Below are positions 3,199 through 62,780 of a stretch of DNA of 64,000 bases, one piece after another (position 1 is the first letter of the stretch; each line of letters opens with the position of its first letter). Origin of the DNA: Patescibacteria group bacterium (GTDB lineage: Bacteria > Patescibacteriota > Patescibacteriia > 2-12-FULL-60-25); the NCBI GenBank assembly GCA_038061235.1, contig JBBTZS010000002.1, positions 4,672 to 68,671 on the forward strand. Direction: 5' to 3'. A model generated the notes under the pieces. That model did no database searches and was not told where the DNA came from. It was given only the letters and a program-made list of their open reading frames with translations. The position numbers and the translations under genes were made by a program.

Positions 3199-3309
3199 GA
3201 CAAGGGACAAAGAGCAAAGAGCAGCTCCAGATTGGAACTGCTCTTTGCTCTTTGCTCTTTTCTAACTGCCCCCGCTCTCTGCTCTTTGTTTACTGTTCTC
3301 TGTGCTTAG
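3199..3309. repeat. Composite AAGAGCA/TGCTCTT heptamer hairpin element, copy A
   Basis: GACAAAGAGCAAAGAGCAG-13 nt loop-CTGCTCTTTGCTCTTTGCTC followed by a CTCTGCTCTTTGTTTACTGTTCTCTG tail. Near-identical organisation at 40808-40905. Confidence 0.85.
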
Positions 3310-9016: not shown

Positions 9017-9091
9017 GCTCCCGTCGTCCAAAGGTTAGGACAGCAGTCCTATGAACTGCCCATCAAGGTTCGATTCCTTGCGGGAGTACCA
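9017..9091 (+). tRNA. tRNA with non-canonical anticodon loop CCUAUGA (nominal anticodon UAU, C at position 33)
   Basis: Otherwise regular 75-nt cloverleaf: GCTCCCG/CGGGAGT acceptor, D arm GTCC-AAAGGTTA-GGAC, anticodon stem GCAGT/ACTGC, T arm CAAGG-TTCGATT-CCTTG, A73, CCA. Starts 1 nt after the preceding tRNA. Confidence 0.6.
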
Positions 9092-17600: not shown

Positions 17601-17820
17601 TGGTGCCCCCGGTTGGATTTGAACCAACATTGCACGGCTTACCTGCCCGCCATGCCGACAAAAAAACCACGTTGTTACGTAGTTTTTTCATGGTGCCTCG
17701 AGTTGGAGTCGAACCAACATCTCACGGCTTAGAAGTCCGGTGCTCTATCCGGTTGAGCTATCGAGGCATGGCTTTGGCAGGCGGGGAAGTCCAGCGTTCT
17801 ATCCATTGAACTACAGGGGC
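17601..17820 (-). tRNA. Interrupted tRNA-Arg-like gene: 5' half 17786-17820 and 3' half 17601-17641, separated by a 144-nt insert
   Basis: 5' half: GCCCCTG-TA-GTTC-AATGGATA-GAAC-G-CTGGA-CTTC. 3' half: TAA-GCCGT-GCAAT-GTTGG-TTCAAAT-CCAAC-CGGGGGC-A-CCA. The acceptor strands pair 7/7 (one G:U). Joined loop would read CTTCTAA. Confidence 0.6.
17691..17767 (-). tRNA. tRNA-Arg(TCT), nested inside the interrupted tRNA gene
   Basis: GCCTCGA/TCGAGGC acceptor, D arm GCTC-AACCGGATA-GAGC, loop CTTCTAA, T arm GTTGG-TTCGACT-CCAAC, A73, CCA. Weak anticodon stem (CCGGA/GCCGT, 3 Watson-Crick pairs). Followed by its own hairpin/T-run (17662-17688). Confidence 0.75.
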
Positions 17821-21432: not shown

Positions 21433-22608
21433 ATGCCCATGGCCGTGGAACCCGTTCGCTTCGAGACGCGTCGAGAACCGCGTCGCGTCGCGCTCGTCCA
21501 CGACTATCTCGTGCAGGATGGCGGCAGCGAACGCGTCCTCCTCGCGCTGCACGAATTGTATCCGCGCGCGCCGATTTTTACGCTCTTCCACAATCCGGCG
21601 CGCACGCATATCGGCTTCAAACATGCCGACATCCGTCCGTCGTATCTGAACAATCTTCCCTTCGCAAAAAAACGCTACCAGTGGTATCTGCCCTTCATGC
21701 CGGACGCGGTGGAACGGTTCGATCTCTCCAACTTCGACCTCGTCCTCTCCTCTTCCTCCACCTTCGCCAAGGGTGTCATCGCCGCGCCGGAAGGTTTGCA
21801 CGTTTGCTACTGCCACACACCGACGCGTTTTCTCTGGCAAGAACGCGCGGGATACGTAAACGAATTGCCGCAACCGCGTTTCGTAAAACGATTCATCCCG
21901 CCGCTCCTGCATCTCATGCGCCAATGGGACGCGATCGCCGCGCGCCGTCCGGACGTGATGCTCACCAACAGCCAAACGTCGCGTCTACGCATCCGCCGCT
22001 ATTACCAACGCGACGCGGAAGTTCTCGCGCCGCCCGTGGACATCGATCGCATCCCCTTTTCAACGAATCCGGGCTCTTATTGGCTCACCGGCGGGCGTCT
22101 CGTGGCATACAAACGCTTCGATCTTGTCGTGCAGGCGTTCGCAAAACTCAACGTCCCGCTCAAAATCTTCGGCGAAGGCCCGGAGCGTGACAAGCTCCGC
22201 AAGATGGCCGGCCCGAAAACGGAATTTCTCGGACACGTCACGGACGAGGCAAAGATCCAGCTCTTCCGCGACGCCATCGCTTTCCTGCATCCGCAAATCG
22301 AGGACTTCGGCATCACCGCGGTCGAGGCCATGGCCGCCGGTCGTCCCATCATCGCCTTCGGACAAGGCGGCGCGGCCGAGACGGTGTTGAACGGCGTCAC
22401 CGGCACGTTTTTTGAAGTGCAATGTTGGGAAGACGTCGGCAACGCCGTATTGCGATTCGACCCGGCGCGCTTTGATCCGCGCCAAATCCGCAAACACGCC
22501 GAAACCTTCGGCAAGCCACGCTTTTTGGAACAAATGAAACAACGTCTCGACCGCGCATGGTCCAGCCACACATCTGACATCTCACATCTGACATCTCACA
22601 TCGTATGA
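21433..22608 (+). CDS. Glycosyltransferase family 4 (GT-B, group 1)
   Basis: 391-aa ORF with a C-terminal GT1 domain (FLHPQIEDFGITAVEAMAAGRPIIA). Stop overlaps the next start (ATGA). Confidence 0.85.
   Translation: MPMAVEPVRFETRREPRRVALVHDYLVQDGGSERVLLALHELYPRAPIFTLFHNPARTHIGFKHADIRPSYLNNLPFAKKRYQWYLPFMPDAVERFDLSNFDLVLSSSSTFAKGVIAAPEGLHVCYCHTPTRFLWQERAGYVNELPQPRFVKRFIPPLLHLMRQWDAIAARRPDVMLTNSQTSRLRIRRYYQRDAEVLAPPVDIDRIPFSTNPGSYWLTGGRLVAYKRFDLVVQAFAKLNVPLKIFGEGPERDKLRKMAGPKTEFLGHVTDEAKIQLFRDAIAFLHPQIEDFGITAVEAMAAGRPIIAFGQGGAAETVLNGVTGTFFEVQCWEDVGNAVLRFDPARFDPRQIRKHAETFGKPRFLEQMKQRLDRAWSSHTSDISHLTSHIV
22570..22603. repeat. Tandem heptanucleotide array ACATCTG/ACATCTC x5
   Basis: Forms the last 11 codons (HTSDISHLTSHIV) of the glycosyltransferase gene. 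Confidence 0.85.
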
Positions 22609-23711
22609 GAGTTCTGATGGACGGCCGTCCGATGCTGCGCCCATGGATGGGCGGCGTCCCAAGACTCGCGTCGAGTTTAGCGACATCGATCAAGGCGGCA
22701 CTCGGTGACGACCAACTGATCATCGCGACGACGGGCCTGCGCCGCGCGACAGATTCCGCCGTTTTAAGTTTCAAGTTTCAAGTTTCAAGACCCATCCCCA
22801 ACAAACTCATCGCCTTTCTCACCTTCACCGGCCTTTCTTCATTCGATCGTTTGTTTCGAGATCAAAATGCGGACGTGCTCCTCCTGCCGAATCTCGAATT
22901 CGTCGGTCGCCCGCGCATGCCGTACGCGCTTCTCGTCCACGATCTTTCGTTTCTGGTCGAACCGCGCTGGTTTGACCGTAAATCCCGTATCTGGCACGCG
23001 CTCGTGAAACCACGATCGTTGATCAGGAATGCGACGCATCTCTTCACAGTTTCCGAAACAACGAAACGCGATCTCATACGTCTACTCGATATTGATCCGT
23101 CGCGGATTACCGTGATTCCGATGGGACTCGATCCGCTTCCCGCGCTTCCCGACAACGATCGCCTGTCGCGGGCGCATGACCATGCGCCCCTACCGCAAAA
23201 CGGGCGGTTCATCTTGTGTCTCGGCGGATCTAATACGAGAAAAAACGCGTCATGCGTTTTGGCCGCGCATGCCATGCTCGTAAAAAATCCGAAATTTCAA
23301 GATGTGGATTTGGTTATTTGCGGTGGCCTCTCCCCTCAATCCCCTCCTCCCGGAAGAGGGGCAAGGGGTGGTGCGACGCACCTCGACCGTCCTTCCGACA
23401 CCGAACTTTTTTCCCTCATGCGTGACGCCTCAATATTTTGTTATCCGTCTTGGTACGAAGGCTTTGGGATACCACTCCATGAAGCCGCGAGATTCGGAAC
23501 GCCGTGTATCGCTTCGACCTCGAGCTCACTTCCGGAAACTGCACCCGAAGGAACGACGTTTGCCTCGCCCGCTAAACCCCATCATTGGGTCGAAGCGATA
23601 TGTCAGGTCTTGGACAATCCGGAAAAACATCGAACCAAAACCGTACTCGGAGACTGGAGTGAGGCGGGGCGCATAATCACGAATAAGCTGCGTGAAATAG
23701 CAAAGGCCTGA
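22605..23711 (+). CDS. Glycosyltransferase (GT-B, group 1)
   Basis: 368-aa ORF with GT1-type C-terminal domain (FCYPSWYEGFGIPLHEAARFGTPCIAS). Contains two repeat-derived in-frame segments. Confidence 0.8.
   Translation: MRVLMDGRPMLRPWMGGVPRLASSLATSIKAALGDDQLIIATTGLRRATDSAVLSFKFQVSRPIPNKLIAFLTFTGLSSFDRLFRDQNADVLLLPNLEFVGRPRMPYALLVHDLSFLVEPRWFDRKSRIWHALVKPRSLIRNATHLFTVSETTKRDLIRLLDIDPSRITVIPMGLDPLPALPDNDRLSRAHDHAPLPQNGRFILCLGGSNTRKNASCVLAAHAMLVKNPKFQDVDLVICGGLSPQSPPPGRGARGGATHLDRPSDTELFSLMRDASIFCYPSWYEGFGIPLHEAARFGTPCIASTSSSLPETAPEGTTFASPAKPHHWVEAICQVLDNPEKHRTKTVLGDWSEAGRIITNKLREIAKA
22761..22789. repeat. Tandem heptanucleotide array GTTTCAA x4
   Basis: Inside the CDS, translated as VLSFKFQVSR. 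Confidence 0.85.
23327..23385. repeat. G-run/C-run hairpin element inside the glycosyltransferase CDS
   Basis: CTCCCCTCAATCCCCTCCTCCCGGAAGAGGGGCAAGGGGTGG, translated as GLSPQSPPPGRGARGG. Related in style to 27686-27760. Confidence 0.65.
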
Positions 23712-33587: not shown

Positions 33588-35270
33588 ATGCCCTCCCCAA
33601 CGCCTCAAACTGTCCCCGACTTCGTTGCCCGTATTCGCACGACGTTTGGAATTGACGAGATTGAGAATCTACCGGAGGACGTGACGACCCTTCGCTACGT
33701 CCTATACGCCCGCAAGAGCACCGATAACTCGGCCAAGCAGGAACGATCCATCGGCGACCAAATCCACGAATGTAAGACATTGGCAGAGCGTGCAGGGCTT
33801 CACGTCGTGGCCGTTCTCCACGAAGAACACTCGGCCAAGCTCTCCGGCAAGAGGGACGTGTTTCATGCCATGCTGGCAAGCCTGTCCAGCGGCGAATATG
33901 ACGCCATCCTGACATGGGCTCCTGACCGTCTTGCCCGCAACATGAAAGACGCGGGGGAGGTGCTCGACCTACTCGATAAAAACGACATCAAGGACATCAA
34001 GTTCGCCAATGGGTACTACTTCCAAAATGACGGCGCGGGCAAGATGATGCTCGGCATCGCCTTCGTGCAGGCTAAACAGTTCATAGACACCCACTCCCAG
34101 AACATCAAACGCGGCATCAGTCGCATCACGGCCGAGGGCAAGTGCTACGACCGTCCCAAACACGGCTACTACAAAGACAAGGACAAGTACCTCCGGCCTG
34201 ACGGGGAGAACTGGAACCTCATCAAAAAGGCCTTCGAGATGCGCCTGTCACGCGAACCGAAGTACGCTTTGCGGGAAATCGGGACATGGTTACAGGGGCA
34301 GGGCTACCCGCTCAAAACCAAGCACCCAGAACGTCACTCAATCGTCGTTGACGATAAGTTCTTGTCTGACCTATTCCGTGATCCTTTCTATGCCGGAGCC
34401 CTCATCTTCGGCAAGCGGATCGTAGACCTGACAAACAAGTACAACTTCCAACCTATCATCACGCCTGACGAGTTCGACATGCTCGCCAAAGAAGATGGCA
34501 TCAATAAGAAGTTCACGTTGTCCGAGGTCATCAAGCCCAAGGGCTCGGTCAAAGCTGACCTCATGCGTGGGATGGTCATTTGTGGCGGTTGCAATCGTCC
34601 CCGTTCCGCTGGCATCACCCCAAAGAAAACCAAAACGGGTACGACAAACTATTTTCTATACCGTTGCGACACGGTGGGGTGCAAATACAAAGGCAAATCC
34701 ATCCGCGCAAAGGAGGTGCTGGCCGCCGCCTACGCCTTCCTCGACAGCCACCCGATGAACTTTGAGAAGGGCTACGCGGCGTACAAGCGCGATATGGAGC
34801 ATCAAATCGGCGTGCGCGACGCGGAACTCCTATCAAAGCTCAAATCCCTTCATAAACAACACGAGGCGGCCAAGGAACGGGTGGACGAGGCCAAGGCATC
34901 GCTCAAACAATATGCGGACGACGCGGTGCTCGTAAAAGAGTTCAAGAAAGACTTGACGCAACAACTCGCAAAACAGCACGAACTCGAAAACGAAATACGC
35001 AAACTACAGAAAAAACGAGAGGACGGAAAAGAGGCGATCCAAAGCTACGAACAGTTCATCGAACTTTTCGGAAATCTGGCTCAACACATCAAAAAAATAA
35101 CCAACATGGACGACTTGGATTACATCATGAAAAAAGTCTTCATGAACTTTGTTATCGAGGGCAAGAAAGTCGCTCAAATAACACAAAACTCCCTGTTTAG
35201 GGAGTTGTGCGGTACACCGGAATCGGTGATGGTAGCCCCAAGGGGAGTCGAACCCCTCTTAACGGCTTGA
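33588..35270 (+). CDS. Large serine recombinase
   Basis: Resolvase catalytic domain (YARKSTD..SIGDQ, DRLARN), recombinase domain, a Cys cluster (CGGCN..C..C) and a C-terminal coiled coil. The last 41 nt overlap tRNA-Glu on the other strand. Confidence 0.88.
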   Translation: MPSPTPQTVPDFVARIRTTFGIDEIENLPEDVTTLRYVLYARKSTDNSAKQERSIGDQIHECKTLAERAGLHVVAVLHEEHSAKLSGKRDVFHAMLASLSSGEYDAILTWAPDRLARNMKDAGEVLDLLDKNDIKDIKFANGYYFQNDGAGKMMLGIAFVQAKQFIDTHSQNIKRGISRITAEGKCYDRPKHGYYKDKDKYLRPDGENWNLIKKAFEMRLSREPKYALREIGTWLQGQGYPLKTKHPERHSIVVDDKFLSDLFRDPFYAGALIFGKRIVDLTNKYNFQPIITPDEFDMLAKEDGINKKFTLSEVIKPKGSVKADLMRGMVICGGCNRPRSAGITPKKTKTGTTNYFLYRCDTVGCKYKGKSIRAKEVLAAAYAFLDSHPMNFEKGYAAYKRDMEHQIGVRDAELLSKLKSLHKQHEAAKERVDEAKASLKQYADDAVLVKEFKKDLTQQLAKQHELENEIRKLQKKREDGKEAIQSYEQFIELFGNLAQHIKKITNMDDLDYIMKKVFMNFVIEGKKVAQITQNSLFRELCGTPESVMVAPRGVEPLLTA

Positions 35271-35304
35271 AAAGCCGCTGTCCTAACCGATAGACGATGG
35301 GGCC
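35230..35304 (-). tRNA. tRNA-Glu(TTC)
   Basis: GGCCCCA/TGGGGCT acceptor (G1:U72), D arm GTCT-ATCGGTTA-GGAC, loop TTTTCAA, T arm AGGGG-TTCGACT-CCCCT, A73, CCA. Confidence 0.85.
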
Positions 35305-38930: not shown

Positions 38931-39670
38931 GACCGTTTGGATTGCGCCTTCCTCCACTCCTCAATCTTTTTATGATTCCCCGAGAGAAGTACGTCGGGCA
39001 CATTCCAAACTTTTAACTTTTGCCTTTTGCCTTTTGACTTACCAAGAACATAATTTTCCGGTCTCGTATACTGCGGATATTCGAGTACGCCTGCGTCCGT
39101 ATGCGACTCGGCCGCAAGCGACTCCGCTTTGCCAAGGACGCCGGGAACCAGGCGCGCGACGGCATCCGTCATGACGAGTGCGGGGAGTTCGCCGCCCGTC
39201 AGAACGTACGGCCCGATGGACAGCTCCTCGTCGGCGAGATGTTTGGCGATGCGCTCGTCCATGCCCTCGTATCGCCCGCACAAAAAGACGAGGCGGTCGT
39301 ATTTCGAAAGTCGCTTTGCCTCCTGCTGTGTGAACGGTTTCCCTTTTGCGGATGTAACGATGACGCGCGCCTTTTTGGCAGCGGCCGTTTTCTTTCCGTC
39401 TTTCGTCCGGAGTTTGAGCGAGACGAGTGCTTCGTGAAACGGCGCGACTTTCATCACCATCCCGGGACCACCGCCAAACGGCTTGTCGTCCACAGTTTTA
39501 TGCGCGTCATGCGTCCAGCGGCGCAAGTCATGCACCTGGATTTGTAGGGGTACGGCGCGCCGTGCTCCTACCGAACGTTGCGCACGCCCCAAAATCGAAC
39601 CGCGTAAATACGGCTCCACCATTTCAGGAAAAATAGTGACGATATCGACGCGTAATGGTTTGCGTTTCAT
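38927..39670 (-). CDS. trmD: tRNA (guanine37-N1)-methyltransferase TrmD
   Basis: 247-aa ORF: IVTIFPEM, VDDKPFGGGPGMVM, CGRYEG.DER, LSIGPYVLTGGE motifs. Carries an in-frame palindrome insertion. Confidence 0.92.
   Translation of the reverse strand: MKRKPLRVDIVTIFPEMVEPYLRGSILGRAQRSVGARRAVPLQIQVHDLRRWTHDAHKTVDDKPFGGGPGMVMKVAPFHEALVSLKLRTKDGKKTAAAKKARVIVTSAKGKPFTQQEAKRLSKYDRLVFLCGRYEGMDERIAKHLADEELSIGPYVLTGGELPALVMTDAVARLVPGVLGKAESLAAESHTDAGVLEYPQYTRPENYVLGKSKGKRQKLKVWNVPDVLLSGNHKKIEEWRKAQSKRS
39544..39571. repeat. REP-like palindrome, copy 5, inside trmD
   Basis: GTAGGGGTACGGCGCGCCGTGCTCCTAC, translated on the minus strand as SVGARRAVPLQ. Confidence 0.8.
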
Positions 39671-40807: not shown

Positions 40808-40905
40808 GAAAAGAGCAGAGAGCAAAGAGCAGTTCCAATCCGGAGCTGCTCTTTGCTCTCTGCTCTCTGTTCTTTGCTCTTTGTTTACTGCTCTCTGTTC
40901 TCTAC
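40808..40905. repeat. Composite AAGAGCA/TGCTCTT heptamer hairpin element, copy B
   Basis: AAAGAGCAGAGAGCAAAGAGCAG-13 nt loop-CTGCTCTTTGCTCTCTGCTC plus a ..CTTTGTTTACTGCTCTCTG tail. The loop is the reverse complement of the copy A loop. Confidence 0.85.
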
Positions 40906-43112
40906 TCCCTTCCCGGATTCAGTTCTTCGAAGTTCACGGAAAGGAGTTGAGAGACGCCGTCGTCGCCCATCGTCACGCCGTACAGCACGTTTGCCTGCGT
41001 CATGGTGGCGCGATTGTGCGTCACGACGACGAATTGCGTTTTGTCGGCCAGCGTCCCGATGATCTCCGCGAACTTGCGCGAGTTTACCTCGTCGAGTGCG
41101 GCATCCACTTCGTCGAGCACGACAAAGGGCGACGGGTTGGTCGCCATGATCGCGCAAATGAGCGCGATAGACGTCAGCGCTCGCTCCCCGCCGGACAAAA
41201 GCGCAATCGCTTTTGCGCGTTTTCCGGGCGGCGTGGCCATGATGTCGATCCCCGCGACCTCGCCCTCCTTTGGCGCGCGGAGCACGTTACCCTCTTCATC
41301 CACTTCCGGTTCCGGTTGTACTTCGACAAGCGATGCGTCGCCTCCGCCGAACAATTTTTTGAAATACACGCCGAACTCCTTGTCGAGCTTGCGAAACGCG
41401 GTCGCGCTTCGGCCGCGAATCGTGTCGTCCAGCTCCTCGACCACGGTCTCAAGGCCGAGAATTCCCTGTCGCAAGTCCTCGACCTGTTTTGAAAGAAACT
41501 CGAATCGCTCCTTGGTCTCCGCATGCTCCTTTACGGTTTCCGAATCAATCCCGCCGATCCACTCAAGCTGCGAGCGCAGTTTCTGCAACCGCGCCTGCGT
41601 CTCCGGCCCCGTCGGAGTTCTAAGTTCTAAGTTCTGAGTTCTAAGTTCTTCCTCTATCTTCGGCGCATGAAGACGGATATCGGACAGCAGCGCGTCGCGT
41701 CGCGTTTCGAGACGCGCGAGCTCGACCGCCGCTTCCCCGGCTCTACGCTCTACGCTCTGCGCTTCCGCCCTTTTCTGCATGAGCTTGTGTTGCGTTTCGA
41801 AGATGTGCGAGCGCTTGTCCTCTTCACCCTTGTTCCACGCTTCGAGTGCGGCTTCCGCTTCCTTCGCGCGTCGGGCCAATGCCTCGCTTTCTTTGGCGAT
41901 GGACTGCAACTCTTTTTCGATGGCGGGATCGGTTTCCGCTTCCTTCACGGCCTCCGGCGCCGGACGCTGGAGAGAAGTGAGTAGTGAGTAGTGAGTCGTG
42001 AGTAGGTTCTTGAAAAGCGCGCGAAGTTTCGTGATCGGCGGGTTTTCCGTCTTCAACATTGTATCGATCTCTTCGTGTTGATGATGGATTCCTTCAATGC
42101 CCGAAATGATTTTTGAAAGCGGCAACGGCGACCACGGCTTCTCGGCACGAACGGCGGCCACGGCCTTCTTGGTTTCGAGCTTCAATTCTCGTTCGCGCAA
42201 GGCCGCGCGTTCCGTCGCCGCCGCGTCGACCGCGACGCGCAGTTCCTTGAACCCCTCGCCACGCGGCGTCGCCTTCTCGAGTTCCGCGAGTTCCGCTTCA
42301 AGCGTCTTCGCTTCCGCTTCGAGCGCCGCTTCGGCCATCCGCGCCTCGTTACGCCGCGTTTGCGCGGATGCGAGTCCCGAGGAAACCGTGCCCCATTCAT
42401 GCCCGTAATGCGCGCGTTCCAGCGAACGGAGTTCCACTTCGATCATCTCGCGCTCCGCTAAACGCTTCACGTGTCGCTCAAGCGAATTCAATCGGGGTCC
42501 GATCTCCGACAGGATCTGATCGGTTTGAATCAGATTCTTGCGCGACTCGTCGATCTTGTTCAAGGCGCTTTGCCGCTTTAGCTGGAACGATCGCAGTCCG
42601 AACGCTTCGTCGAAAAATTCCTTGCGTTCCGACGGCGACGCGACCAGCACCGCATCGACCATCCCTTGTCCGATCACCGAATACGTCCGTTGGCCGATGC
42701 CGCATTGCGCGAGCAGAAGCGCGACATCGGTGAGACGCGCCGCCTGCTTATTCACCTCGTATTCCGACTGACCGTCACGATAGAGTCGGCGCGTAATCGC
42801 GATCTCCCCCATCTCGACGCCCTCGATCTTGCCGTCGTTTTCAAGAATCATCGTGACTTCCGCAAAACCCGAGCGCGTTCGTTTTTCGGAACCGGAAAAA
42901 ATCACGTCTTCCGATTTCTTCCCACGAAGCAGCTTCAAACTCTGCTCACCCATCACCCACCGGATGGCATCGGCGATATTCGACTTTCCCGAGCCGTTGG
43001 GCCCGACGATGCCCGTCACCCCACGACGCCCGGACGGATCGAGCTTGAACTCGACCACCGTCTTTTGCGCAAAGGTCTTAAAACCTTGAATCTCCAAACG
43101 CTTTAAATACAT
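40902..43112 (-). CDS. smc: Short SMC-like chromosome segregation ATPase (736 aa)
   Basis: N-terminal Walker A GPNGSGKSN, long coiled coil, C-terminal signature LSGGERALT and Walker B FVVLDEVDAALD. About 400 aa shorter than typical SMC, with no recognisable hinge. Confidence 0.75.
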   Translation of the reverse strand: MYLKRLEIQGFKTFAQKTVVEFKLDPSGRRGVTGIVGPNGSGKSNIADAIRWVMGEQSLKLLRGKKSEDVIFSGSEKRTRSGFAEVTMILENDGKIEGVEMGEIAITRRLYRDGQSEYEVNKQAARLTDVALLLAQCGIGQRTYSVIGQGMVDAVLVASPSERKEFFDEAFGLRSFQLKRQSALNKIDESRKNLIQTDQILSEIGPRLNSLERHVKRLAEREMIEVELRSLERAHYGHEWGTVSSGLASAQTRRNEARMAEAALEAEAKTLEAELAELEKATPRGEGFKELRVAVDAAATERAALRERELKLETKKAVAAVRAEKPWSPLPLSKIISGIEGIHHQHEEIDTMLKTENPPITKLRALFKNLLTTHYSLLTSLQRPAPEAVKEAETDPAIEKELQSIAKESEALARRAKEAEAALEAWNKGEEDKRSHIFETQHKLMQKRAEAQSVERRAGEAAVELARLETRRDALLSDIRLHAPKIEEELRTQNLELRTPTGPETQARLQKLRSQLEWIGGIDSETVKEHAETKERFEFLSKQVEDLRQGILGLETVVEELDDTIRGRSATAFRKLDKEFGVYFKKLFGGGDASLVEVQPEPEVDEEGNVLRAPKEGEVAGIDIMATPPGKRAKAIALLSGGERALTSIALICAIMATNPSPFVVLDEVDAALDEVNSRKFAEIIGTLADKTQFVVVTHNRATMTQANVLYGVTMGDDGVSQLLSVNFEELNPGRE
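41617..41651. repeat. Tandem heptanucleotide array GTTCTAA x4-5 inside the smc-like gene
   Basis: Translated as EELRTQNLELRT. Confidence 0.85.
41741..41768. repeat. Tandem heptanucleotide array CTCTACG/CTCTGCG inside the smc-like gene
   Basis: 7-nt periodicity in the coiled-coil coding region (..AEAQSVERRAG..). Confidence 0.75.
41977..42004. repeat. Tandem heptanucleotide array GTGAGTA x4 inside the smc-like gene
   Basis: Translated as LLTTHYSLLTS. Confidence 0.85.
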
Positions 43113-43116
43113 ACGG

Positions 43117-43144
43117 GTTTCAGGTGTCAGGTTACAGGTTTCAG
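43117..43144. repeat. Tandem heptanucleotide array GTTTCAG/GTGTCAG/GTTACAG (left arm)
   Basis: Starts 5 nt upstream of the smc-like gene's start. Inverted relative to 43210-43237. Confidence 0.85.
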
Positions 43145-58374: not shown

Positions 58375-58384
58375 CTCTGATGGT

Positions 58385-58500
<116 letters not shown>

Positions 58501-58509
58501 CTTTTGGGC

Positions 58510-58602: not shown

Positions 58603-58983
58603 TCGGATCCAATCGTTATACGTGCAAGGCATACTGTACATTCACTAGCTTCACGAGCCATGACAACGCACGAGAACTTTCTTATGTGCGCCGTCCGGTT
58701 TTTACCCGGATGGCTGAAGCATTGGACGATTAGTATGGCTCGGCTAAAGACCTCTCGGTCTGTACACCTACCACCTATCAACCTCCTGTTCTCGGAGGGT
58801 CCTATGACGAAGGTTCATCTTGAGGACGGCTTCACGCTTAGATGCTTTCAGCGTTTATCCGTGCCGAACGTAGCTACCCGGCGGTGCTCCTGGTGGAACA
58901 GCCGGTGCACTAGAGGTTCGTTGTTCCCGGTCCTCTCGTACTAAGGAACAGCCCTCTCAACCTTCCGCGCGCGCAGTAGACAG

Positions 58984-59079
<96 letters not shown>

Positions 59080-59643
59080 CGATGGGCCGACATCGAGGTG
59101 CCAAACCTGGTCGTCGATGTGGACTCTTGGACCAGATCAGCCTGTTATCCCCGGAGTAGCTTTTATCCGTTGAGCTTCCGCCGTCCGATATCGTACGGTC
59201 GGATCACTATGTCCTACTTTCGTATCTGCTCGACTTGTTGGTCTTGCAGTGAAGCCAGCTTTTCCCATTGCGGAACCAGCGCGATTTCCATCCGCGCCTA
59301 GCTGACCTTTGTGAACGCCTCCGTTACATTTTAGGAGGCAACCGCCCCAGTTAAACTACCCACCAGCTACTGTTTCACGATCCGGATTCACGGACCGTGA
59401 TGAGAATACCGTCAGGGCAAGGGTGGTGTCTCATTGGCGCCCGAAGGCTCCCACCTACGCTGAACATGCCAAGCCGGTACCCAATAACAAGTTGTAGTAA
59501 AGCTTCACGGGGTCTTTTCGTCTGACTGCGCGTACAGGGCATCTTCACCCCACTTGCAATTTCGCCGAGTCCCATGTTGAGACAGTCGCTCTCTCGTTAT
59601 GCCATTCGTGCGGGACGGAACTCACCCGTCAAGGAATTTCGCT

Positions 59644-60390
59644 CTTTCTGTTACAAGTCCTTCGACTTGATGCGATCATCTCTGTCGCATTCTGCATGTC
59701 GCCATGCAGATCGGACTATATCTTCTCCGAAATCATTTCGGAGTCTCGGCGTGTAGTCTCTGAGGATTCCAGAAAACGCGATGGAGATTTTCGATTCATA
59801 CTCTGAATGATGTTTGCGATACGGTGAAGACCTTCTGAAATCTTATGCTCGCCTCGATCCATACATCGAAGGATCGAAACGAACTTCTCGAAGTCTTCAC
59901 GTTTTGCGGTGCGCAACGGATATTTCTGAAAGAAAGGAATAATCTTTTCTTGCAGATCCTGTCGCGATCTCACGCAGTATCGAAGCAATGATTCCTTATG
60001 ATTGTCATGACGGCGGTTGATATAGATCTGACCGCACTCAAAGAAATGTTTAATCACTTTGAGAGCTGATCGGCTTTTTTCACCTTGTGTCACGACAAAT
60101 TCCGGAAATACTTGCCACCCAGAACCGGTCGTTATGTTGCGGATCAAGCTGACTGAGAAACACCCTTCTCCGTCAACGAATCCACAAATCCAGTTCGCTG
60201 TTCCTAGTCTTTCCTGCTGATTGTCTGCACTTGAGACTTTTTTACTGGGCATATTCTATGGCCGAATATTACCTTAGTAGCTCAAGATACTCCAGATGTT
60301 CCAGCATTTAGCCAGATTTTCTTCTACATCTCCCGTGGCAACGGAAGTTCGAAGGAGGACTTTCACCTCACTAAGGCAACGAATTATTTC
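59644..60390 (-). mobile_element. Group I intron (747 nt) at E. coli 23S position 1931
   Basis: Exons rejoin to ..CGTCCTAAGGT|AGCGAAATTCC.. 5' exon ends in U. Intron ends in G. Intron nt 14-20 (GCCTTAG) pair with exon CTAAGGT (P1 with U:G at the splice site). Contains a LAGLIDADG ORF. Confidence 0.85.
59716..60252 (-). CDS. LAGLIDADG homing endonuclease (single-motif, 178 aa)
   Basis: NWICGFVDGEGCFSVSL motif. The ORF lies wholly inside the intron, and its sequence is AT-richer than the surrounding rRNA. Confidence 0.88.
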   Translation of the reverse strand: MPSKKVSSADNQQERLGTANWICGFVDGEGCFSVSLIRNITTGSGWQVFPEFVVTQGEKSRSALKVIKHFFECGQIYINRRHDNHKESLLRYCVRSRQDLQEKIIPFFQKYPLRTAKREDFEKFVSILRCMDRGEHKISEGLHRIANIIQSMNRKSPSRFLESSETTRRDSEMISEKI

Positions 60391-61229
60391 ACCTTAGGAC
60401 GATTATAGTTATCGCCGGCGTTCATCAGCGCTTCGGCTCAAGGCTGCCTCCGCCTGAGGCGGAATGACCTCTCCCCTTAACGTTCTGACACTGGCCAGGC
60501 ATCACTTCCTATACGTCACCTTGCGGTTTAGCAGGAAGCTGTGTTTTTGGTAAACAGTCGGAAAGCGTCTTTAGCTGCGGCCGGCTTGCGCCGGCAGGCC
60601 TTATCCCTAAGTTACGGCCGTTGTATTGCCGAGTTCCTAAACATGGGTTCTCTCGTACACCTGAGCACACTTATGCCTACCCACCTGTGTCGGTTTACGG
60701 TACGGTTTCTATAGAGTTAGCCCTAGAAGATTTTCTTGGCACCCCAGTCCCGACCCTCGCTCCGCTTTCGCGAAACTCGCGCTCACCCCGAGGCTTATGA
60801 CCGGCGGATTTGCCTACCGGTCACCCCTGAGTGCCCGAAGATTCATTCCGGGAATCTCGGTCAGTTGAAGGATGCGTCCCTCCATTGGAACTCTACAGAA
60901 GTGCAGGAATATTAACCTGCTGTCCATCGACTACGCCTTTCGGCCTCGCCTTAGGACCGACTAACCCAGGGACGATTCGCGTTGCCCTGGAAACCTTGGG
61001 TTTACGGTGGACAGGATTTTCACCTGTCTTTTTGCTACTTATGCCGACATTCTCTCTTCCGAACGCTCCACGGTGCCTCACGGCTTCCGCTTCGGCGCAG
61101 ATCGGAATGCTCCCTTACCAAAGTATGAATCCTGAGATTCATACCGTCCGCGACTTCGGTATCGTACTTGAGCCCCGGTAAGTTTTCGGCGCCGGACAGC
61201 TTGACCAGTGAGCTGTTACGCTTTCTTTA

Positions 61230-61267
<38 letters not shown>

Positions 61268-62780
61268 AGCCGTCCGACCGCCTTTCACACTTAGTACGAA
61301 TTTTGGGACCTTAGTCTGCGGTCTGGGCTGTTTCCCTCTTGTCCTATGGAGCTTAGCCCCCACGGACTGACTGCTGGGAACACCGAACGGCATTCGGAGT
61401 TTGGTTGGGAGCTGTAAGCTTGCGCCCCAGCTCTCATTCAGTGCTCTACCTCCGTTCGGCTATTAATCAGCGCTAGACCAAAATCTATTTCAGGGAGAAC
61501 CAGCTATTACCCGGCTCGATTGGAATTTCACCCCTAGCCACAACTCATCCCCGAGTGTTGCACGGCTCGTGGGTTCGGACCTCCATCCCGCTTTCGCGGG
61601 ACTTCATCCTGGTCATGGCTAGCTCGCCGGGTTTCGGGTTGTGCATACGCCACAAATTCGCCCTATTCAGGCTCGCTTTCACTACGGCTTCGTCCCCGCA
61701 GGGACTTAACCAAGCGACGTATGGCACACTCGTCGGCTCATTCTTCAATAGGAACGGTGTGACGGACTTGCGCCCGCTCCACCTCCTTGTAAGCGTACGG
61801 TTTCAGATACTATTTCATCGCCCTCCCGGGCTGCTTTTCAACGTTCCATCACTGTACTGGTTCACTATCGGTCAGGAAGAGTATTTAGCCTTGGCACATC
61901 GTCGTGCCTGCTTCCTACGAGGTTTCTCGGGCCTCGTAGTACTTTGGATCTGGACAAAAGGGATGGGTGCCGTTTCGCCTACCGGACTATCACCGTCTTT
62001 GGTTCCGCTTTCCAGCGGTATTCAACTACAGTCCCGTGCCTTTTTGCCTTTCAGAGGAAAGGCGTGTCCGTCCCTACAACCCACAATATGTCGATAGCCT
62101 CTGCTCGCCCCGTTGTCCGCGGTATTACTTGCGTAAGACTCGGTGCAACGGTTAAACATATGTGTTTAGGCTGTTCCCGTTTCGCTCGCCACTACTCAGG
62201 GAATCAAGCAGACTCTGTTGTCACGCCGTGACCATTGCTGATCGCGGGTGACAACAGAATCTGCGTTTCAATTTGTTTCTTTTCCTCTGGCTACTGAGAT
62301 GTTTCACTTCACCAGGTTCCCATCCACGACCTATGTATTCAGTCGTTGGATCATCGTGCTTCACACGATGGGGTTTCCCCATTCGGACATCTCCGGATCA
62401 TAGGTTGCTTGCCACCTCCCCGAAGCTTATCGCAGGCTGCCACGTCCTTCATCGGCTCTTCGCTGCCAAGTCATCCACCGTACGCCCTTACGTGCTTCCG
62501 CCATCCGGAAACCGATCAAAGATCGGACCCGGACGGACAATAAGTGTTCAGATGCGTTGTCATTAATTGACTCGCTTGAAATTGCTTGCCATGCACCGTA
62601 ATGGTGCATGGCGCGTGTGTGTACATGCCTTGCACGTATAACAATTGGATACTGTTATACATTCAAGATCTTCAGTTTTGAAGATTCGATCCGGGTCTAC
62701 CGGCGAATGCCGGTCCGAGCCGGACACGGAACGGATTCGAGTGAGTTCGAACCCGATCTGTGTCCACCTCATGCTCTTGA

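Follow-up and report, generated by a model that had tools for sequence, protein, structure and literature searches.

The smc gene of a groundwater Uhrbacteria (candidate-phyla) bacterium raises the question of how three arrays of 7-nt tandem repeats came to be translated within a conserved housekeeping gene, and whether they can switch it on and off. We examined them in the window, that is, the whole 64-kb stretch of DNA analysed, in which the gene and its arrays are located as follows:

40902..43112, minus strand: smc, an intact ORF of 736 aa that hosts the three heptamer arrays
41616..41649, minus strand: array 1, AGTTCTA x4.9 on the plus strand, with 92% matches (TRF)
41740..41763, minus strand: array 2, GCTCTAC x3.4 on the plus strand, with 94% matches (TRF)
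41972..42005, minus strand: array 3, GAGTAGT x4.9 on the plus strand, with 88% matches (TRF)

The ORF encodes a genuine and conserved SMC. It scored 598 bits against TIGR02168 (curated equivalog cutoff, 567.35 bits), which matched at positions 1–310 and over a second stretch, probably the C-terminal part, and it matched PF02463 at 2.9e-65. The translation contains Walker A (GPNGSGKS), signature (LSGGE) and Walker B (VLDEVDAALD) motifs. The protein is under strong purifying selection, being 94% identical outside variable segments to that of its closest relative (L002). Canonical bacterial SMC (TIGR02168) has about 1180 aa and a hinge. The protein studied here resembles it in the head domain, the Walker A/B and signature motifs and the antiparallel arms, but has only 736 aa and gave no Pfam match to SMC_hinge (PF06470); its sequence matches in the PDB were to SMC heads only. 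In the AF2 model, the apex, which lies between PLPLSKII and LQRPAPE, both conserved motifs, consists of two short helices (333–353 and 360–379) where the hinge would stand. Sequence and model together point to an SMC with no detectable hinge domain. The short length (about 735–745 aa) is conserved across Uhrbacteria/Patescibacteria, and the apex has a constant length of 44 aa in about 100 homologues. A literature search for hinge-less SMCs in Patescibacteria returned nothing relevant.

As the first-pass annotation had proposed, the repeats are translated: all three arrays lie inside the open 736-aa frame on the minus strand, and in protein and codon alignments each is flanked by conserved residues in the same reading frame. 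On the coding strand, array 1 reads GAACTTA x4.9 and encodes E(E)ELRTQNLELRT (aa 488–499; the ORF peptide over the array is EEELRTQNLELRT, aa 487–499). Array 2 reads GTAGAGC x3.4 and encodes the conserved peptide AQSVERRA (aa 450–458; ORF peptide AEAQSVERRAG, aa 449–459), and array 3 reads CTACTCA x4.9, a stop-free unit encoding LLTTHYSLLTS (aa 370–380). The same annotation had assigned all three to the coiled-coil. According to the AF2 model this is right for array 2, which lies within the long C-arm helix 398–482 and is the only array in a long coiled-coil helix, whereas array 1 falls at a break or loop of the coiled-coil (loop 493–502, with pLDDT below 50 at 496–498) and array 3 in helix 360–379 of the small apex that replaces the hinge.

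The 7-nt unit is not a multiple of 3, so a change of one unit would shift the frame; this part of the earlier reading holds. From it the arrays had been interpreted as potential phase-variable contingency sites, at which unit slippage would toggle smc on and off or between protein variants, and neuO of E. coli K1 is an example of a translated heptanucleotide tract that can behave in this way (PMC13001214). However, the neuO tract spans 3–53 perfect units (PMC13001214), while the tracts in smc have 3.4–4.9 units, each with at least one interruption, and their host is a conserved housekeeping gene, not a dispensable or environment-facing one. No unit-number polymorphism was found either. Same-population assemblies made independently from several samples showed 0 indels over 22 kb with about a dozen arrays; in five same-population contigs there were 0 gaps over 22 kb or 4.3–4.8 kb, and ten contigs encode an identical smc protein. 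These are consensus assemblies, in which low-frequency length variants could go unseen. The 90% protein cluster likewise contained no length variant, only an allele of equal length and one fragment, in which array 3 is unaltered. Across species, array 3 has an equal copy number (4.3) in L001, and the intergenic arrays flanking smc have kept four copies in three species, with point substitutions only. The absence of length variants from the same-population contigs and the 90% protein cluster largely refutes phase variation, which we now regard as highly improbable.

We see next to no chance that the arrays are an assembly or sequencing artefact. Tandem repeats are hard for short-read assemblers, and four Logan contigs do break at 40851–40854, within a 62-nt intergenic array, but the same smc sequence with its arrays was recovered from at least five samples, in independent assemblies and with different pipelines. 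Moreover, the smc arrays measure 24–34 nt, shorter than reads, and array 3 recurs in another species.

Alignment with orthologues had been suggested as a way to recognise the arrays as insertions. Instead, arrays 2 and 3 replace sequence of equal length, and both the protein and the codon alignments rule out simple insertion for these two. In array 2, about seven clustered changes, mostly synonymous and to rare codons, left length and conserved peptide unaltered, and the periodicity is built from the rare synonymous codons GTA, AGA and AGC; a chance origin, which the conserved peptide had made worth considering, was ruled out (fewer than 0.02 expected in 5,691 codons). In array 3, LLTTHYSLLTS takes the place of an equal-length LRxxSxDLVxK in other orthologues. 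This array is also present in L001/P0002, and the 46-aa apex segment that contains it shows 61% identity to L001 and 26% to L002. The unit of array 1 is specific to the source lineage in the codon alignment. Across 173 smc loci we counted 17 arrays, which cluster at aa 487–500 (six lineages with six different units) and aa 598–620 (six lineages), both of them indel-rich loops. The array-1 site is thus a recurrent heptamer-array hot spot. The idea of rapid-evolution sites is partly borne out for arrays 1 and 3, given the six units in six lineages at the former and an apex identity of 26% against 94% elsewhere for the latter.

We next consider the level at which the periodicity arises. In 15 annotated genes there were four exact period-7 runs of at least 12, and none remained after the same proteins were re-encoded with genome codon usage; taken array by array, re-encoding of the peptides gave P values of 1.5e-4 for array 2 and below 5e-5 for arrays 1 and 3. 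The codons that make up the arrays are rare in this genome (CTA 3%, AGA 3%, ACT 5%, GTA 9%). Because the arrays use rare codons and the re-encoded sequences are almost never periodic, the periodicity is a feature of the DNA. It could otherwise have been a by-product of protein selection for the 7-residue heptads of a coiled-coil, since the host protein is one, three 7-nt units make 21 nt, or one heptad, and in YSLLTTH the residues Y and L could occupy heptad positions a and d. Codon-shuffled controls did not reproduce the periodicity, which rules out a protein-driven origin. In addition, array 2 covers no more than eight codons, which encode a peptide without periodicity, array 1 occupies a loop outside any heptad register, orthologues have non-periodic residues at the matching places, and arrays of this type are mostly intergenic. 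We give this explanation almost no credence.

The arrays in smc are not special to that gene, and heptamer arrays form a genome-wide, mostly intergenic pattern. The window contains 11 exact period-7 runs against 0.15 expected, with no enrichment of other periods, and 17 period-7 arrays of at least three copies against one each for periods 12, 14 and 21. Altogether the 64 kb contain about 29 heptamer arrays; with genes placed as annotated on the public contig that matches the window, they occupy 14.7% of the intergenic and 1.0% of the coding bases. The same bias was seen in 167 related Patescibacteria loci (2.26 Mb), with 158 period-7 arrays compared with 37 of period 8, 36 of period 9 and 10 of period 6. 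The units are diverse (129 different ones among 215 arrays). Close to smc, the following arrays are relevant:

39009..39040, minus strand: trmD array, sense CAAAAGT-like x4.6 (TRF), translated
40812..40907, no strand: inverted array pair, (AGAGCAR)3, a 13-nt loop and (YTGCTCT)n (TRF)
43116..43144, minus strand: smc-leader array, sense CTGAAAC-like x4.1 (TRF), with its end 3 nt before the smc start codon
43210..43238, plus strand: rbfA-upstream array, CTGACAC-like x4.1, a loosely inverted partner of the smc-leader array

The trmD array encodes GKSKGKRQKLKV in a length-variable loop. The smc leader, which is SD-less, consists of its heptamer array, with four units also in L088 and L001. The pair at 40812..40907 lies between the convergent rpsP and smc genes and overlaps the smc stop codon; it folds into a hairpin of -55 kcal/mol (z = -8.1), relatives carry a G+C-rich terminator hairpin at this position, and a second copy with an identical loop is found at 3208–3260. 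Inverted pairs of heptamer arrays in the window lie at 3208/3239, 21295/21338, 40812/40846 and 43116/43210.

Some of these arrays are plausibly functional, as they abut start codons or form terminator-like hairpins, and the three arrays inside smc might by analogy be cis elements, either bound RNA or DNA motifs or sequences that modulate the speed of translation or the structure of the mRNA. The conservation of array 3 is in line with this: over 30 nt, the window and L001 differ at one position, and the flanks are less conserved. We nevertheless consider it very unlikely, since the three arrays have unrelated units, are missing from most orthologues and differ in unit between lineages at the same site. 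By eye, the three arrays showed no complementarity to one another or to the smc leader. No known RNA family in Rfam overlaps the array region; its matches lie elsewhere in the window.

The arrays that persist in coding sequence have been filtered by selection for frame, local length, absence of stops and tolerance by the protein. Two codons illustrate the filter against stops:

41634..41636, minus strand: codon 493, CAG (Gln), the sole interruption of array 1, where a perfect unit would give an in-frame TAG
41757..41759, minus strand: codon 452, CAG (Gln), in the only unit of array 2 that departs from the others, at a place where the repeat would otherwise put TAG in frame

The same replacement of an in-frame TAG by CAG occurs in the L088 array at the array-1 site, and in each of the four perfect coding arrays the unit is free of stop codons.

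We consider it probable that a DNA-level tendency of the lineage toward 7-bp tandem repeats produced the arrays, which were kept where the protein tolerates them. This tendency would belong to Candidatus Uhrbacteria, and to Patescibacteria more widely, and would act everywhere in the genome. In intergenic DNA the arrays build up and form leaders and terminator-like hairpins, whereas inside genes nearly all would be purged. Those that survive in coding sequence keep frame and local length, avoid in-frame stops by a stop-free unit or by a CAG at the TAG position, and either leave the protein unchanged (array 2) or fall in tolerant segments (the loop of array 1 and the apex helix of array 3). Once fixed, they are ordinary stable sequence with no role as a switch, translated into a low-complexity peptide with a 7-residue period. 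The data above establish the origin at DNA level, the distribution across the genome, the filters, the stability and the repeated use of hot spots, while the generating mechanism is inferred.

As the generating step, polymerase slippage or a one-unit (7-nt) transient misalignment seems to us the best candidate, through which 21-nt in-frame gains would arise at variable loops, while length-constrained helices would show a length-neutral, templated 'periodisation'. Against plain slippage, each event would add or remove 7 nt, which the unchanged lengths at arrays 2 and 3 contradict, and no intermediate alleles were seen; against a purely local process, shared units hint at ectopic copying. In another reading, the arrays would be written by length-preserving templated periodisation and not by ordinary slippage, with either one-unit (7-nt) transient misalignment or short-patch copying from other arrays as the candidate process. 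We hold this to be a possibility, if an unlikely one. A process of this kind could replace sequence already present, even in essential genes, and would also supply SD-less leaders and terminator hairpins; its footprints would be the rare-codon changes of array 2 and the 30 nt replaced in the fixed-length segment of array 3.

Another, rather doubtful explanation is that the arrays did not grow in place but were copied, through template switching or ectopic conversion of short patches, from arrays that already existed at other sites. Array 3 would then derive from a neighbouring rpsP leader of (CTACTCA)n, and 'AGAGCGT' tracts would have moved between the sites of arrays 1 and 2 in smc. In favour of the former, L001 carries array 3 in smc and, 1.6 kb away, an inverted rpsP-leader array of the CTACTCA unit, and this leader array is also present in L002 and L006, both of which have no array 3; the rpsP leader of the window, on the other hand, has another unit. 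In favour of the latter, the L088 array at the array-1 site shares 17 identical nt with array 2 of the window, which lies about 120 nt upstream of that site in the gene, and L088 has no periodicity at the array-2 site. Conversion also explains length-neutral replacement more easily than slippage does. However, these are only two coincidences, set against the diversity of units noted above; the L004 array at the hot spot looks as if the native AAG AAT CAA had expanded in place, and no flanking homology that could guide conversion was identified.

Our preferred reading, a DNA-level tendency filtered by selection, removes a tempting but wrong one, that of phase variation in a chromosome-maintenance gene. 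It extends the long-known bacterial bias for 7-bp tandem repeats, strongly, to the candidate-phyla genomes of Patescibacteria, in which heptamer repeats represent a sizeable share of intergenic DNA and also turn up in core proteins, at tolerant sites that can be predicted. The patches of CAG for TAG, the 'synonymous' array of rare codons and the hot spots show with unusual clarity how mutation pressure and purifying selection oppose each other, and the length-neutral arrays provide a handle on the mechanism that generates heptamers. For annotation, arrays of this kind account for odd low-complexity stretches and for contig breaks in CPR assemblies.

Translated repeats in conserved genes have precedents of other kinds. 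Rickettsia palindromic elements (RPEs) and other MITEs form in-frame insertions in housekeeping genes, and RPEs are discrete units of about 100–150 bp, each lengthening its host gene and encoding a conserved peptide (PMC10969869). They resemble the smc arrays as repetitive 'selfish' DNA translated in conserved genes at places that the fold tolerates. Unlike RPEs, the smc arrays measure only 24–34 nt, two of them (arrays 2 and 3) add no length, and we saw no terminal repeats or element boundaries. Closer in unit is neuO, an accessory gene for surface modification, in which the tract occupies the 5′ end, varies in length within cultures and between genomes, and is out of frame in about two thirds of genomes (PMC13001214). 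Both carry a 7-nt unit in coding sequence, with only certain lengths in frame, but the smc arrays are short, interrupted and invariant in the available data, and reside in a housekeeping gene.

The smc arrays belong with the known heptameric simple-sequence repeats (SSRs) of bacteria, such as the GGGNATC repeats of Xanthomonas and Nostoc (PMC4692102), the LSSR5-11 class (Mrazek et al, 2007) and the STRR heptamers of cyanobacteria. A literature search found no paper linking heptamer or simple-sequence repeats to CPR/Patescibacteria. As in the known heptameric SSRs, the units here are 7 nt long, arranged head to tail and usually present in 3–6 copies. Period 7 exceeds its neighbouring periods genome-wide, as judged from the 64 kb of this genome and the related loci, and the arrays are mostly intergenic and often form inverted pairs capable of hairpins; their positions are common to related species, while sequence and length drift. 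The arrays described here differ in their host, a small-genome member of the candidate phyla, whereas long-unit SSRs reportedly occur mainly in larger genomes. They also differ in comprising many different units instead of one G-rich family, and in that several are translated in core genes (smc and trmD), with visible avoidance of stop codons.

The region 41617-42004 lies inside the minus-strand ORF 40902..43112, which is a genuine SMC gene: its product scores 598 bits against TIGR02168 (cutoff 567) and 2.9e-65 with PF02463, and contains the Walker A, signature and Walker B motifs. The product is short (736 aa), with no hinge domain detected, and this short form (~735-745 aa) is kept across Candidatus Uhrbacteria and other Patescibacteria (homologues P0001-P0120). 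The SMC of the clade can be described as a conserved "mini-SMC", with arms about half the normal length, no hinge domain and an apex of two short helices flanked by the invariant motifs EKPWSPLPLSKII and LQRPAPE. A literature search on the hinge-less mini-SMC of this clade returned no paper. Tandem Repeats Finder (TRF) placed three period-7 arrays in the ORF, and the peptides they encode match those given in the first-pass annotation, confirming that heptamer arrays are translated within smc:

Array 1, 41616-41649, inside smc (minus strand): AGTTCTA x4.9, coding strand (GAACTTA)n, encoding EEELRTQNLELRT
Array 2, 41740-41763, inside smc (minus strand): GCTCTAC x3.4, coding strand (GTAGAGC)n, encoding AQSVERRA
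Array 3, 41972-42005, inside smc (minus strand): GAGTAGT x4.9, coding strand (CTACTCA)n, encoding LLTTHYSLLTS

In an AF2 model of the protein (mean pLDDT 75), array 1 falls in a helix break and loop (484-502, with pLDDT <50 at 496-498), array 2 in the long C-arm helix (398-482), and array 3 in the apex helix (360-379), between the conserved motifs PLPLSKII and LQRPAPE. Elsewhere in the window, a heptamer array at 39009-39040 is translated in a length-variable loop of TrmD, another (22569-22602) encodes the last ~12 residues (SHTSDISHLTSHI) of ORF 21433..22608, and a possibly translated one (22761-22789) is close to the putative N-terminal end of ORF 22605..23711.

The window contains 11 exact period-7 runs, against 0.15 expected from composition-matched random sequences under a first-order (dinucleotide-frequency) model, and among periods 2 to 15 none except 7 was enriched. 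When the same peptides were re-encoded with the codon usage of the genome, the observed periodicity had P = 1.5e-4 for array 2 and <5e-5 for arrays 1 and 3. Similarly, 15 annotated genes (5,691 codons) contain four exact period-7 runs of at least 12, with none in the re-encoded controls. Several codons in the arrays are also seldom used by this genome (CTA 3%, AGA 3%, TTA 4%, ACT 5%, GTA 9%). Since re-encoding almost never restores the periodicity and rare codons are used, we ruled out the protein sequence and coiled-coil heptads as its source.

Over 21 nt of translation, each of the seven cyclic triplets of a 7-nt unit appears as a codon. TAG is among these triplets in arrays 1 and 2, and where it would fall in frame the sequence has CAG instead, the sole interruption of either array:

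Codon 493, 41634-41636, minus strand: CAG for TAG in array 1
Codon 452, 41757-41759, minus strand: CAG for TAG in array 2

The same replacement was found in the related locus L088, and the perfect arrays in smc genes all have stop-free units (4/4). Selection has likewise acted on the length and position of the coding arrays. Array 2 is length-neutral and preserves the conserved peptide AQ[S/A]VERRAG, differing from the version in relatives L007 and L088 by clustered, mainly synonymous changes. In array 3, LLTTHYSLLTS stands where others have LRxxSxDLVxK, in an apex segment of 44 residues in ~100 homologues. Across 173 smc loci, 17 period-7 arrays are confined to five places. At aa 487-500, the array-1 site, six lineages carry six different units (window GAACTTA, L005 ACGAATT, L148 AAATCCC, L091 AAGCTAC, L004 AAGAATC, L088 AGAGCGT), and at aa 598-620 arrays occur in six more lineages; both sites are indel-rich loops.

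The proposal that the arrays act as phase-variation switches was not supported. The tracts in smc are short and interrupted, and five contigs from different samples of one population (4.3-22 kb, covering about a dozen arrays) align to the window with no gap; their 1-8 substitutions all fall outside arrays. A Hainich groundwater metagenome contig is 99.96% identical to the window with zero gaps, an identical SMC protein is found on 10 contigs, and the 90% protein cluster holds only the window allele and one fragment, from a different strain, in which array 3 is unaltered. For some arrays copy number is also constant across species: array 3 has an identical 4.3 copies in L001, a different species with 84% protein identity, and two arrays upstream of smc have four units each in the window, L088 and L001, with point substitutions as the only differences. 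An array downstream of clpP has 6, 3.4 or 0 units in three relatives. As intergenic arrays are gained and lost between species, turnover is real but slow.

The suggestion of rapid evolution holds for arrays 1 and 3. Array 1 is lineage-specific, being missing among the 120 homologues listed, and is located in the hot spot at aa 487-500. The 46-residue apex cassette with array 3 is only 26% identical to that of L002, the closest relative, whereas the remainder of the protein is 94% identical; with L001, which also bears the array, cassette identity is 61%. This indicates either that an apex allele recombined between lineages or that, once the array had arisen, the partner helix changed faster, possibly in compensation. 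The locus is mosaic: the window is nearest to L002 overall, yet shares with L001 and L088 both its apex cassette and its upstream intergenic arrays, and L088 equals L007 over 51 nt at the array-2 site, which suggests recombination between related Uhrbacteria species.

We can only infer the origin step of the arrays. In-place expansion at the hot spot is plausible, the L004 array consisting of the native AAG AAT CAA GA plus exactly three further units. Arrays 2 and 3 are length-neutral, unlike the outcome of plain slippage, and fit two routes: transient misalignment by one unit with later realignment, or copying of a short patch from a different array. Such copying is suggested by a unit identical to that of array 3, inverted and 1.6 kb away, in the rpsP leader of L001, L002 and L006, and by 17 identical nucleotides common to the L088 hot-spot array and array 2; weighed against 129 different units in 215 arrays, however, these matches are suggestive but not conclusive. 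As the most novel possibility, a length-preserving templated process could write heptamer periodicity into existing sequence.

The 64 kb contain ~29 period-7 arrays (TRF), which cover 14.7% of intergenic versus 1.0% of coding bases in the 21.5 kb with public gene calls. Many adjoin start codons (in smc the leader array stops 3 nt short of the ATG), and many form inverted pairs, such as that at 40812-40907 between rpsP and smc (fold -55 kcal/mol, z = -8.1), which occupies the exact site of an ordinary G+C-rich terminator hairpin in six relatives. The hairpin element standing in place of that terminator, (AGAGCAR)2-3, a conserved 13-nt loop CTCCRGATTGGAA and then (YTGCTCT)n, has two copies (3208-3260, 40812-40866), both between convergent genes. 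Four Logan contigs from different runs (L169-L172) end at 40851-40854, in a 62-nt CTGCTCT array downstream of smc, and heptamer arrays appear to break up short-read assemblies of these genomes. Upstream of 19 annotated starts (31624-52299), a Shine-Dalgarno motif is missing in 17; the leaders are G-poor (17.5% G across the final 30 nt), and a heptamer array that stops 2-10 nt ahead of the ATG frequently makes up the leader, with C-rich tracts such as CCCTCCCCCT also present. The region 26310-26870 (~560 nt), with no convincing ORF and abnormal codon-position GC, holds several period-7 and period-14 arrays (26329-26397, 26620-26651). Around the rRNA operon there are AAAGAGC arrays related to the hairpin element (58523, 62786 and 62939). 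Other features of the window were:

58711-62501, minus strand: 23S rRNA, match of 3,791 nt
58383-58501: 5S gene, after the 23S
33149-33271, minus strand: LOOT RNA (Rfam, 85.6 bits, full length), upstream of gene 32108..33082
33588-35304: gene for a large serine recombinase of 560 aa with a Resolvase domain; next to it a small HTH_17 gene
9017-9091: tRNA-Ile, TAT anticodon
8939-9015 and 17691-17767: two tRNA-Arg(TCT) genes

Since the 23S model has 2,925 positions, the gene contains ~0.9 kb of insertion(s) in which ORFs lie (e.g. 59716-60252). Gene 32108..33082 contains a G-rich 21-nt repeat (32260-32328). The end of the recombinase gene overlaps tRNA-Glu (35230-35304), and the segment 33588-35304 is possibly a mobile element that has integrated here.

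A count of arrays with at least 3 copies in 2.26 Mb of sequence from 167 related Patescibacteria loci gave 158 for period 7, 37 for period 8, 36 for period 9 and 10 for period 6. A literature search on heptameric repeats in candidate-phyla bacteria found no paper; the class of repeats is a known one that had not been described in this lineage. One study (PMC4692102, citing Mrazek 2007 and cyanobacterial heptamers) describes heptameric repeats as over-represented in many bacteria, where they lie mainly between genes and frequently pair up as inverted copies; polymerase slippage has been proposed as a hypothesis for them. The smc arrays are selection-filtered, translated members of this class, and differ from the heptanucleotide tract of neuO, in which unit number varies between 3 and 53 and which roughly two thirds of genomes carry out of frame (PMC13001214).
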